A stretch of DNA of 64,000 nt, taken from contig JBCCYL010000017.1 in the NCBI GenBank assembly GCA_039189765.1, positions 1-64,000 on the forward strand. Direction: 5' to 3'. The notes below the pieces were generated by a model. The model searched no databases. It worked only from the letters and a program-made list of their open reading frames with translations, and was not told where the DNA came from. Shown piece after piece: positions 10,283 to 12,530 of this stretch (within the stretch, counting starts at the first letter, position 1; each line of letters starts with the position of its first letter). Origin of the DNA: Cyanobacteria bacterium P01_F01_bin.150. Its GTDB lineage: Bacteria; Cyanobacteriota; Cyanobacteriia; CAKZMO01. The translations under genes were made by a program, and so were the position numbers.

Positions 10283-12076
10283 CTACCAACACGAGGCGCT
10301 ATAGCAAAGTTCGTTAAAGACTATTGCTGCCATGCCATGCAGTAGTTTTTCACAGGCAAAGGTACCGTCGTTGTGTAATGGGTTTTTGAACCAATCTGCC
10401 ATTGTTTCAGGTGGGAGCAAGCAATCTTCTGGATTACTAAGGTATTTTTCCTGGAACTCTGGGAAGATTTGCTGAATAATTTTCTGCTTCATGTTGTTGT
10501 AGATGGTTGGTTCCGTAGCGTGAGATTTTGGGCGAACAAGAAAATCTTGGGGTAACCATTTCTGGGCCATTTGGCGAATAATCGTCTTATTCCAAAACAA
10601 CGTCGCATGGTGTTGTGGCGGAATTGAGGCAAGGTATTCTACTAAACGGTGATCGAGAAAAGGGACACGAGCTTCTATCCCCTGACTCATGGAACTGCGA
10701 TCTTCATGCCAGAGGTTGTATTGCTGTAGCGAATAGACTTCCATCAACATTTCTTGTTGAAAGGTAGTGCAATTAGGAGGATAGGATTTGAGGGTATAGT
10801 CGAACGCAAACGAGCCATCATTGGGTCTGGTTGACTTTTTGAGCTGTACCATTCGCTGCCTTTTTTGGTTTAATTCTCGGTTATAGTCTTGCCAGTTTTT
10901 TGTCGTTTTATCGTCTGCGATTGAATAGCCGCCAGCAAACTCGTCTGCCCCTTGCCCCAGTAGCATGACTTTCAGCCCAGAGATCTGGCGTTTCGCGTAG
11001 CAATAGAGTTCATGCTTATAGACCCACTCTAAGTTAAATTTTGGCGCATCGATTAACCAAATAAAATATTCAAATGTCCCCAGGGAAAAGTCTAATTCTT
11101 CTAAAAATTGCTCAGAGTCAAACTGGAAGGGATAGAATGGCAAGCCTAAATGTTGGCAGAGTTGCTGTGCTGCGGCAAGATCACCATTTCCTCGCGTATC
11201 CTCATCGCCAATACTAAAGCACGGTAAATCTGGTTTTAGCTGGCTAGCAACAGCGGCAATTACGCCAGAATCAAGTCCACCGCTCAAACTGATGCCCAGA
11301 GGGACATCGCTCATGAGGCGTTTACTCACACTGTCAATGAATAAGTCCTGATATTCCTGAATGTAATCTCTGGGAGTGCGAGAGTCATTGACAGGTTCCG
11401 CAATTAAATAATTGGCCAAGTCCCAATAACATTGAGGCTTTACCGTTCTGGTATCAGCATCAAAAGTAAAATAATGCCCTCCTGCTAACCGATAAACACC
11501 TTTAACGTAGGATGTTGTGGCACTCAGATTACTTAAGTCTTGAAATTGAGAATAGTAAGGAGTATTGGGATGAACGAGAAGCGACGCTAAAGTGGAACCA
11601 AAGATGAGTTGTGAATCAACTTGAGCATAATATAAGGGCTTAATACCCAGGCGATCGCGTGCTAAAAATAACTGTTGCCGTTGTTTATCCCAGATTGCGA
11701 TCGCAAACATACCATTCAGATAGTCGAGTGCTTTTGGCCCCAATTCTTCATATAAATGCAGCACAATCTCGGCATCAGAATGAGTACGAAAGTGATGTTT
11801 TTCTCTGAGGTGCGATCGCAGTTCTTGGTGGTTATAGATTTCCCCATTTACCACCACAAACATGGTTTCATCTTCATTCCAAATCGGTTGCTCTCCACCA
11901 GCGATATCGATAATGGCAAGTCGGCGATAAATTAACCATAGGGGAGAAGAGTGTATGACCTGTTCATCATCAGGTCCGCGAAGGGACAATTGTAGTCCCA
12001 TCTGGCTTAGGTAGTCCCAATATTGCTGTGGCTGTTGACGATCTTGGAAATCAATAAATCCAGCAAATCCACACAT
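10283..12076 (-). CDS. asnB: Asparagine synthase (glutamine-hydrolysing)-like amidotransferase
   Basis: MCGFAG Ntn nucleophile, RGPD, NGEIYN, RDRLGIKPLYY, LSGGLDS, GQGADE, EARVPFLD. Confidence 0.9.
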   Translation of the reverse strand: MCGFAGFIDFQDRQQPQQYWDYLSQMGLQLSLRGPDDEQVIHSSPLWLIYRRLAIIDIAGGEQPIWNEDETMFVVVNGEIYNHQELRSHLREKHHFRTHSDAEIVLHLYEELGPKALDYLNGMFAIAIWDKQRQQLFLARDRLGIKPLYYAQVDSQLIFGSTLASLLVHPNTPYYSQFQDLSNLSATTSYVKGVYRLAGGHYFTFDADTRTVKPQCYWDLANYLIAEPVNDSRTPRDYIQEYQDLFIDSVSKRLMSDVPLGISLSGGLDSGVIAAVASQLKPDLPCFSIGDEDTRGNGDLAAAQQLCQHLGLPFYPFQFDSEQFLEELDFSLGTFEYFIWLIDAPKFNLEWVYKHELYCYAKRQISGLKVMLLGQGADEFAGGYSIADDKTTKNWQDYNRELNQKRQRMVQLKKSTRPNDGSFAFDYTLKSYPPNCTTFQQEMLMEVYSLQQYNLWHEDRSSMSQGIEARVPFLDHRLVEYLASIPPQHHATLFWNKTIIRQMAQKWLPQDFLVRPKSHATEPTIYNNMKQKIIQQIFPEFQEKYLSNPEDCLLPPETMADWFKNPLHNDGTFACEKLLHGMAAIVFNELCYSASCW

Positions 12077-12245
12077 TTATTTGAGGTGTCCTAGTACATA
12101 GTGATAGTGGCGTACAATTTAGTTCATAAAGGGCTGGATAAAGAAAATCTACCAGTGATGAATAGTTACACAGTCTTATCATAAAATCTAGATGATAATA
12201 GCCTTATAAAGTCTGATTAGTTTAAGCCAGCACTGGAGAGTAAAG

Positions 12246-12530
12246 ATGAAAGCACGAGAATCTAAATCAAAAGCAGACTCAAACAAAGCGGCAGACAATA
12301 CAAAAGCTAAAGTTAGTAACTTTTCCAGTCCCAGTTCTATTCAAACGAAAGCGGAGTCTTCTCCTGCCAAGCCTAGTGATTCTCAGGGCCGTTCCGCTTC
12401 TATGATCAATAACGTTTCCAAAACCCTGCAAAAAAAGAGTGAGCAGGCCAAGATTCAGATGAAACCTAAAGACAGTCAGATTCAACGGCTTCCCCAAGAC
12501 CTTTTGGGTGTTGTTCCGCCTAAGCCTTAA
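12246..12530 (+). CDS. Small protein made almost entirely of the shared leader; putative eCIS cargo or precursor peptide
   Basis: RBS GGAG; SMINNVSKTLQKK is homologous to the next gene's N-terminus. Confidence 0.7.
   Translation: MKARESKSKADSNKAADNTKAKVSNFSSPSSIQTKAESSPAKPSDSQGRSASMINNVSKTLQKKSEQAKIQMKPKDSQIQRLPQDLLGVVPPKP

Follow-up and report, generated by a model that had tools for sequence, protein, structure and literature searches.

Introduction

Several enzymes with the fold of asparagine synthetase B (AsnB) modify peptide C-termini. In the available part of PMC13060819, TsrC and ScdTA are described as amidating peptide C-termini and PesC as making a nitrile via the amide; PesC is also described there as still acting on leaderless fragments. 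For AlgoCIS, an extracellular contractile injection system (eCIS), the accessible text of 10.64898/2026.05.27.728243 reports that a disordered, system-specific N-terminus suffices for AAA+-dependent loading and that DUF4157 is dispensable. Here we analyzed a stretch of 64,000 nucleotides from Cyanobacteria bacterium P01_F01_bin.150 (contig JBCCYL010000017.1, positions 1 to 64,000; referred to as the window), in which a gene for an AsnB-like amidotransferase faces an open reading frame (ORF) of 94 residues with an eCIS-type leader and a tail ending in VVPPKP. According to our reading, to which we assign a probability of roughly 0.55, a cassette for a peptide synthesized ribosomally and modified post-translationally (RiPP) was captured by an eCIS, a bacteriocin-type leader was replaced by an eCIS loading leader, and the modified peptide is injected.

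The locus resembles those of TsrC and ScdTA (amide) and PesC (nitrile; nitrilobacillins), as far as they are described in the available part of PMC13060819, in an AsnB fold whose glutaminase and synthetase residues are intact, in an enzyme gene beside a precursor with a conserved C-terminal motif, and in an oxygenase gene nearby. It differs from them in that its core ends in Pro (xxPPKP) and theirs in Asn, and in that an eCIS leader replaces the RiPP leader. No MNIO, HExxH, thiopeptide or M16 genes of such clusters were seen at the window, the comparison being with the systems as described. With a core ending in Pro and no MNIO family among the scanned window genes, the locus lacks the C-terminal Asn motif and the MNIO genes of PesC-type nitrilotides.

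With known eCIS cargo (Cgo1 and Cgo2 of AlgoCIS, Pdp1 and Pnf of PVC, Mif1 of MAC, and the DUF4157 proteins) the locus shares a disordered, polar, system-specific N-terminus common to the cargo genes, as well as adjacent AAA+ and DUF4157 genes. The payload after a window-type leader, however, comprises 6–16 residues and not a folded domain, and a dedicated-looking modifying enzyme accompanies it. Cyanobacterial RiPP clusters with double-glycine (GG), NHLP or Nif11 precursors and C39-ABC exporters resemble most sister AsnB loci and one form of the present cassette (genome G1005, see below). The window has eCIS parts in place of leader and exporter, and its PPKP family matches no precursor model. 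E. coli AsnB (1CT9) and NAGGN amidotransferase have the fold, the Ntn cysteine, the SGGLDS loop and D378/E379/Y384/K517 in common with the window enzyme. They differ in sequence (~24% identity), in tree position and in E348/D384/R387, which are replaced in the window enzyme, the distribution of which is rare and patchy.

Each part of the locus is of a known kind, and the combination was not found in print. A full-text literature search, in which coverage of subscription papers is thin, turned up neither a RiPP delivered by an eCIS nor a PPKP peptide in any paper, and the portion of the Danov 2024 supplements at hand contained no relevant match. The network of asparagine synthetase-like (AS-like) enzymes in PMC13060819 may include the AsnB clade of the window.

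The divergent gene pair and the conserved core

The gene pair consists of the following elements.

10283..12076, minus strand: AsnB-like glutamine amidotransferase, 597 residues, candidate modifier of the PPKP C-terminus (Pfam GATase_7 and Asn_synthase)
12077..12245, no strand: divergent intergenic region, 169 bp, with GGAGAG just 5' of the precursor ATG (from the sequence)
12246..12530, plus strand: candidate precursor, 94 residues, with an eCIS-type disordered leader and a short tail ending in VVPPKP (from the sequence)
12402..12431, plus strand: leader motif MINNVSKTLQ (residues 53–62), common to the cargo-type ORFs of the window eCIS
12480..12488, plus strand: IQR (residues 79–81; IDR in genomes G705 and G688), candidate leader boundary and putative cleavage site
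12510..12530, plus strand: conserved hexapeptide core VVPPKP and stop; variants LVPPKP, VLPPKP and AVPPKP

The two genes lie head-to-head at a distance of 169 bp. The ORF encodes 81 residues ending in IQR, followed by LPQDLLGVVPPKP and a TAA stop, beyond which there is no useful frame; it matched no Pfam or NCBIfam model. An earlier note on this DNA had described the same layout, and its coordinates and translation agree with ours. The stretch from AsnB to the ORF is identical in Logan contigs of a single sequencing run with window DNA, possibly its source and so not independent. No RNA data are listed among the sequencing runs containing window DNA.

Homologues of the ORF point to its last six residues as the core. 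Protein P0122 (97 residues, 68% identical) ends in IQR-LSLEDIMKTNVVPPKP; in contig count and in the length of its longest contig it equals P0002, an AsnB homologue (81%), which suggests that the two may be adjacent. More distant homologues end in IDR-LVPPKP or IDR-VVPPKP, and P0151, identical to the precursor of G688, is present on 15 contigs. Altogether the VPPKP ending was found in 4 out of 18 leader-family proteins (plus three cluster members), the other 14 having unrelated tails. The orthologue in G705, with an overall identity of 36–42%, keeps PPKP with all four codons synonymously changed at the third position. In its own genome the [VL]PPKP ending is unique (1 of 94,302 ORFs). Other matches to the pattern [VLF]PPKP-stop were no commoner than control, and those inspected sit in frames of 11–20 residues. 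The locus has two components of a RiPP cassette, namely a small gene with leader and conserved core and an enzyme that co-occurs with the core. As leader protease or exporter, for which G1005 has a C39-ABC transporter, the window offers only the DUF4157 HExxH protein and the eCIS as candidates.

The earlier note had regarded all 13 tail residues as the core and an Asp side chain as a possible target. Only the last six residues are conserved across homologous loci; LPQDLLG is not conserved, so the Asp side chain fails as a target, and 4 of the 6 core variants seen lack an acidic residue. As the core contains no conserved Asp, the C-terminal Pro carboxylate is the likely target.

The ORF could in principle be what truncation has left of a longer cargo gene, a pseudogene next to an asparagine synthetase of the housekeeping kind, since leader-bearing ORFs are found at many lengths (72–313 residues) and the AsnB passes the generic TIGR01536 cut-off. 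This idea is refuted in the main and hardly credible. The same [V/L]VPPKP-stop occurs at the same stop position in orthologues of 36–68% identity, so that the truncation named in the earlier note as refuting its reading was not borne out, and the core recurs under another leader; with PPKP kept across such divergent orthologues the pseudogene reading fails. The AsnB clade, moreover, is rare, scores below the equivalog cut-off and lies far from E. coli AsnB.

The AsnB-like enzyme

The window AsnB scored 383 bits with TIGR01536 (cut-off 267) and 309 bits with the AsnB equivalog NF006949 (cut-off 499). It stayed below the cut-offs of the lasso cyclase model NF033535 (183 of 525 bits), of NF033561 (47 of 300 bits) and of the macrolactam cyclase and NAGGN amidotransferase models. 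In all 13 clade rows shown, the glutaminase residues C2, R33, R52, N77, G78 and D101 are kept, as are the SGG[LIV]DS loop, D378, E379, Y384 and K517. E348, D384 and R387 of E. coli AsnB, which are substrate-binding positions, are replaced by Q375, N454 and H457. The predicted structure (predicted local distance difference test, pLDDT, 82.5) gave the hydroxyamidotransferase TsnB9 as top fold match (24% identity) together with AsnB (24–25% for the best matches); a comparison with E. coli AsnB (1CT9) resulted in a template modelling score of 0.69. A complex prediction of AsnB, ATP and precursor residues 50–94 scored 0.01.

In a FastTree phylogeny of 91 sequences the clade has a support of 1.0 and is far from E. 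coli AsnB and NAGGN amidotransferase. The phylogeny proposed in the earlier note thus places the window enzyme with neither of them. An IQ-TREE analysis of 32 of the 91 sequences united the PPKP-associated enzymes in one clade with an ultrafast bootstrap (UFBoot) of 98, within which a branch formed by G1005 and a related genome, G756, is sister to the eCIS-linked AsnBs. By its equivalog score, its separation from E. coli AsnB and its altered Asp-binding residues the enzyme does not rank as a housekeeping asparagine synthetase B. Nor does the locus resemble a lasso system: the 28 genes scanned contain no B-protein families, and the core has six residues.

A different chemistry, in which the core is modified by ring closure (a head-to-tail cyclo-hexapeptide or a Lys-to-C-terminus lactam, -18.01 Da) or another amine transfer, would fit the invariant Lys of PKP. 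AS-like enzymes include β-lactam synthetases and lasso cyclases, according to the available part of PMC13060819, and TsnB9 as top fold match at 24% identity would also suit it. We consider this chemistry rather unlikely, because the glutaminase residues are kept in 13/13 clade rows, the scores lie below the lasso and macrolactam cyclase cut-offs, and other clade precursors have unrelated cores, many of them without Lys.

The same core under a bacteriocin-type leader

In genome G1005 an AsnB with 73% identity to that of the window faces two tandem ORFs of 38 and 40 residues at a distance of 289 bp (169 bp in the window). They end in ELDDRILKGIAAG-VLPPKP and -AVPPKP; the precursor sequence preceding the AVPPKP or VLPPKP core is LDDRILKGIAAG. 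Two genes of the fatty acid hydroxylase family, an NHLP-type HlyD gene (TIGR03794), a C39 peptidase-ABC transporter and a second ABC transporter follow 3' of the precursors. Judged by these genes, the G1005 locus appears to be a conventional bacteriocin-type RiPP cluster. Among 142 genomes of its family, just the one that carries this enzyme cluster yielded the precursor. A degenerate DNA pattern for core and stop was found only 1–9 times per genome, similar to control, and two tandem matches within 700 bp of AsnB are therefore not due to chance. The desaturase-like genes of G1005 have no close orthologue in the source genome or G705.

G756, from the genus of G1005, has an intact AsnB (73%) located 90 bp after a TPR-GT41 gene, and no precursor, leader, sheath or VPPKP-stop was found in its genome. 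Since the whole cassette of G1005 lies between the same GT41 gene and AsnB, loss of the cassette is the simplest reading of G756. Core and enzyme co-occur in the window, G705, G1005 and G688 (where the enzyme is broken), with G756 as the one exception in five subclade loci. From these genomes it appears that the core stays linked to its enzyme across a change of leader and export route. The earlier note's suggestion of a precursor with its modifying enzyme gains from this, as the core is conserved with the enzyme under two leader types and the enzyme lies within a clade associated with RiPPs. GG or NHLP precursors are found in the outgroups of known context, so the RiPP state is likelier to be ancestral and the eCIS leader derived. 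A possible relic of a GG leader in the eCIS precursors (LDxRI; 4/12 positions between G705 and G1005, shuffling p ~0.05) is absent from the window ORF and is not claimed.

The eCIS locus and its relatives

The eCIS locus of the window is of a cyanobacterial type. Next to the gene pair the window contains the following features.

12666..13586, plus strand: leader with DUF4157 (eCIS_core, HELTH) and without a C-terminal effector domain (PF13699, E 3e-38)
13676..15512, plus strand: two more leader-bearing cargo-type ORFs, 271 and 301 residues
15860..16564, minus strand: 2-oxoglutarate (2OG)-Fe(II) oxygenase, weakly prolyl-4-hydroxylase-like (PF13640)
16518..18467, plus strand: eCIS AAA+ ATPase, candidate cargo loader
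18572..19264, minus strand: ORF of 230 residues with eCIS leader and RGGFG tail
19505..20635, plus strand: GspS-like ATP-grasp gene, divergent from the RGGFG-tail ORF
21572..39141, plus strand: eCIS structural operon with Pvc16, sheath, two tubes, CIS_tube/LysM, VgrG, gp25, spike tip, baseplate, fibre-like and tape measure genes
3931..5010, minus strand: Ricin-B/B-lectin gene, four genes farther from AsnB than in G705, where it is directly downstream

G705, a genome from another cyanobacterial order, contains a collinear eCIS with 38–77% identity (sheath 71%, AAA+ 72%). Its locus comprises the lectin gene, AsnB (72%), an 87-residue VPPKP ORF head-to-head at 371 bp, a gene with DUF4157 only, a further leader-bearing ORF whose tail differs, and the gene for the 2OG oxygenase. 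The polyprenyl-synthase genes, the 271- and 301-residue cargo tails and the RGGFG/GspS pair are absent at this locus. As other cargo turns over between the window and G705, AsnB and the VPPKP ORF belong to the stable part. AsnB and the peptide also have consecutive NCBI accessions in three named Coleofasciculus assemblies. The leader profile matched 2 of 401 genomes of that order (G705 and G688) and none of five further genomes of the genus. Beside its full AAA+ ATPase gene, G705 contains another, incomplete copy of the C-terminal part (L185, 531–1133), which is 89% identical to the window's.

In G688 the peptide ORF is intact, AsnB is reduced to two fragments and DUF4157 is truncated; no close sheath gene was found in the genome. 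The truncation and the lack of a close sheath mark this locus as a decaying remnant. It nevertheless fits an alternative in which the 94-residue ORF is an unmodified micro-cargo and the AsnB a hitch-hiker that now acts elsewhere or decays. The many contigs with P0151, the AsnB of G756 without a peptide, and the short tails of other leader-bearing ORFs that have no enzyme partner would also fit, and in the accessible part of the Geller 2021 supplement (PMC8213781) Asn_synthase shows no enrichment in eCIS loci, with 2 out of 22,287 domain hits and a non-significant odds ratio of 0.35. G688, however, is a remnant, and in the intact eCIS loci AsnB is full length with all catalytic residues across 28% divergence while neighboring cargo tails turn over. 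We therefore regard the micro-cargo explanation as improbable.

Between AsnB and the lectin gene (3931–10101) lie a polyprenyl synthase gene, an SCP2-like gene and two unknown genes, none of which is found at the G705 locus. A gene cluster for phosphonate utilisation, presumably of the phn type judging by the translations, is located 3' of the eCIS (40492–55823).

The leader and its eCIS context

The first 65 residues of the 94-residue ORF and the N-terminus of the adjacent DUF4157 protein are identical at 28 positions (43%, pairwise E 8e-10). A profile of this leader matched 5 of 94,302 ORFs (at least 30 residues) of its own genome, all five inside the window locus. The ESM Atlas model of the ORF has a pLDDT of 0.31, as for a disordered leader, and no usable match was found in the ESM Atlas. 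The ORF has what characterizes eCIS cargo, namely a system-specific disordered N-terminus common with the DUF4157 protein and, adjacent to it, an eCIS operon and AAA+ ATPase (72% identical in G705 and G688).

The motif [ILV]QR occurs at 7.7–19.4 per 1000 residues in the N-regions of 7 of the 8 DUF4157 proteins of this genome, compared with a background of 0.70 per 1000 residues in all ORFs of at least 200 residues. The eighth protein has none; its called ORF lacks the N-region. [ILV]QR is thus a mark of eCIS cargo N-regions in the source genome, and cleavage at IQR is putative. According to the available part of PMC11297309, DUF4157 carries HExxH and may act in trans; the stand-alone DUF4157 protein is a candidate in-trans chaperone or leader peptidase.

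The best PDB match of the 2OG oxygenase is an algal prolyl-4-hydroxylase (E 7e-4). Orthologues with 63–64% identity occur in G705 and G688, so that the gene is present in all three eCIS loci, and it was not found in five out of five other AsnB-clade genomes, including G1005. By homology it may be a second tailoring enzyme that hydroxylates Pro.

Other leader-bearing ORFs differ in their tails. The position of the 271- and 301-residue ORFs is taken by other tails in G705 and G688. The N-termini of these two Cys-rich ORFs (P0158, P0159) are 83% identical, their C-termini are unrelated, and the ORFs match no Pfam family and are probably variable cargo. ORFs of 113–124 residues (P0144, P0152, P0153; L185 6587–6928) end in a short coiled segment and CCS or CCP. 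The tail motif (P/A)GRLKLNF is common to the RGGFG protein and short leader-bearing ORFs elsewhere (P0123, P0143). The source genome contains sheath genes on at least five other contigs (C1, C5, C25, C115, C223) and seven more DUF4157 proteins; the leader family is found only on the window contig, C17. Viral contigs yielded no relative of the leader.

The leader could also be a handle for processing or co-regulation in the producer. The AsnB would then modify the peptide, but the product would not be injected and would act as a signal or on the particle. That the precursor is loaded into the eCIS is itself an inference, and several clade members with GG-type precursors have genes for a CHASE2-adenylate cyclase and TPS-domain proteins next to them, as would suit signalling peptides. 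According to the accessible part of PMC8894136, contractile injection systems of cyanobacteria may act within the filament. This explanation seems unlikely to us, since within the genome the leader is confined to the five cargo-type ORFs of the window eCIS, all of which carry it, and since the eCIS loci read lack the dedicated C39-ABC exporter that G1005 has.

Distribution and neighborhoods of the AsnB clade

We found about 47 AsnB homologues (P0001–P0047) with 47–81% identity, which form one subfamily; the named ones are almost all cyanobacterial. With a threshold of E<=1e-90, clade members were present in 0 of 400 genomes of a class sample, in 5 of 401 genomes of one order and, in further family and order samples, in 2/90, 3/52, 4/142, 0/173, 0/54 and 0/5 genomes. 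Eleven distinct genomes have an intact clade AsnB. Plasmids yielded no member, and scans of genome and metagenome contigs with AsnB found generic homologues only (best contig segments 28–41% identical), which served as background; relatives likewise gave generic matches only.

Thirteen clade loci were read, including the window and leaving out the Nostoc-type enzymes and the contexts of P0003 and P0006. Three of them contain an eCIS-leader PPKP ORF, six (L177, L178, L187, L188, L216, L218) have GG- or NHLP-type precursors within ~1.5 kb, one (L217) lies inside an NHLP/LanM/epimerase/arginase cluster, two (L186, L194) have weaker precursor candidates and one (L184) has none. A strict GG-leader motif scan of ORFs within 1.5 kb was positive for 3 out of 12 clade loci and for 0 out of 139 generic AsnB loci (those with a recognizable AsnB among 159). 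The scan understates the clade count, as it misses several precursors read by eye.

At L177 (10120–10895) and L178 (11366–11548), GG-type precursors with the short Asn-ending cores FGLSDILRN, VFGVLDNLPN and GPARGDQSN lie directly upstream of the AsnB of the clade, flanked by a TPS-domain gene and a CHASE2-adenylate cyclase. They are candidate precursors of nitriles or amides like those of PesC, and candidate signalling peptides. The clade AsnB of L217 (6956–15334) lies in an NHLP cluster with LanM, a PoyD-type epimerase and a peptide arginase; the core resembles landornamide, to which an amidotransferase is added in this cluster. At L218 (2265–3388), directly downstream of a 46% AsnB homologue, there are three or four GG-type precursors whose short cores are rich in His and Phe (FRIHIHF, FHVHIHF, LCLGPVCLHF). 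L187 (6822–9801) has two precursors with cyanobactin-like leaders and the cores LVPFPRLHS and CGHISGLFDIVTFDNGS; a flavodoxin-ATP-grasp fusion and NHLP transporters surround its AsnB.

A second divergent pair

The RGGFG-tail ORF and its GspS-like ATP-grasp neighbor had been seen in the earlier note as a parallel to the AsnB pair, and GspS-like genes elsewhere do adjoin proteins with a similar tail. The other GspS-like gene of the source genome follows a DUF1190 lipoprotein ending in RGSSGFG..., and in a Nonomuraea record a 44% GspS-like homologue follows a membrane-type protein ending in RGGFG.... We take such GspS-like/DUF1190 pairs to be of the YgiC/YgiB type. The second pair of the window combines an enzyme of this family with an RGGFG tail, but here the tail is carried by an eCIS leader and not by a membrane protein or lipoprotein. 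Since such tails usually belong to a lipoprotein or membrane protein encoded next to the enzyme, this pair looks like a second leader swap, an apparent one seen once. The window GspS-like enzyme was not found in five out of five other genomes tested.

Proposed mechanism

Based on these comparisons we propose that the cassette taken up by the eCIS locus consists of an AsnB-like amidotransferase facing a precursor with the hexapeptide core x-[VL]-P-P-K-P. Ammonia would be released from Gln at Cys2, and the C-terminal Pro carboxylate, the sole carboxylate of the conserved core, would be adenylated and converted to the prolinamide (-0.98 Da), possibly followed by the nitrile as with PesC. The AAA+ ATPase would recognize the disordered leader, and the precursor would be loaded into the tube. 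The leader would then be cut close to I[QD]R, with the stand-alone DUF4157 HExxH protein as a possible protease, and a Pro-rich peptide with a blocked C-terminus (6 residues in G705, at most 13 in the window) would be set free in the target cell, where it would most plausibly bind or inhibit a proline-recognizing protein.

The steps differ in strength. Conserved core and gene order make it very probable that AsnB acts on the VPPKP peptide, and the leader alone makes the peptide product a probable eCIS payload. If AsnB acts on the peptide, an amide is the favored product; a lactam or another product is less expected, and a nitrile slightly less again. A bolder version, in which the eCIS injects a RiPP with the C-terminal Pro converted via the amide to the nitrile (2-cyanopyrrolidine), and eCIS loci acquire pairs of enzyme and peptide through leader swaps, with two such pairs here (AsnB/PPKP and ATP-grasp/RGGFG), must be considered a long shot. 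2-Cyanopyrrolidine serves as warhead in synthetic compounds that inhibit proline-specific serine peptidases. The available part of PMC13060819 names vildagliptin as a nitrile inhibitor.

Several points weigh against capture with leader replacement followed by injection. The G1005 leader with its ELDDRILKGIAAG end matches no bacteriocin-leader family model, and the bacteriocin-type version is known from one genome. In G688 the precursor has stayed intact next to a deleted AsnB, and in G756 the AsnB persists with no precursor, leader, sheath or VPPKP-stop found in the genome. Intact eCIS loci come from two independent lineages only, and shared descent alone preserves gene order. Proteolysis by DUF4157 is putative; in PMC11297309, as far as available, the function of DUF4157 is called elusive. 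Leader replacement would abolish any leader-dependent recognition by AsnB; with core-directed recognition, as for PesC acting on leaderless fragments, a leader swap would be tolerable. Finally, the eCIS-linked AsnB subclade has a UFBoot of only 69, and the junctions differ (IQR and 7–10 residues versus IDR), which leaves the capture history unsettled: one capture and two cannot be told apart.

Significance

The eCIS payloads in the papers found are proteins. A modified-peptide cargo, if true, would join the RiPP and eCIS fields and would offer a minimal cargo for mapping the eCIS loading signal and the unexplained role of DUF4157. It would also provide a substrate for one of the ~300 uncharacterized RiPP-linked AS-like enzymes counted in the available part of PMC13060819. 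If leader swapping is repeated, a class of small-molecule-like eCIS payloads would be defined. The occurrence of a six-residue peptide under an export leader in one genome and under an eCIS leader here suggests that these syringes can carry small modified peptides.

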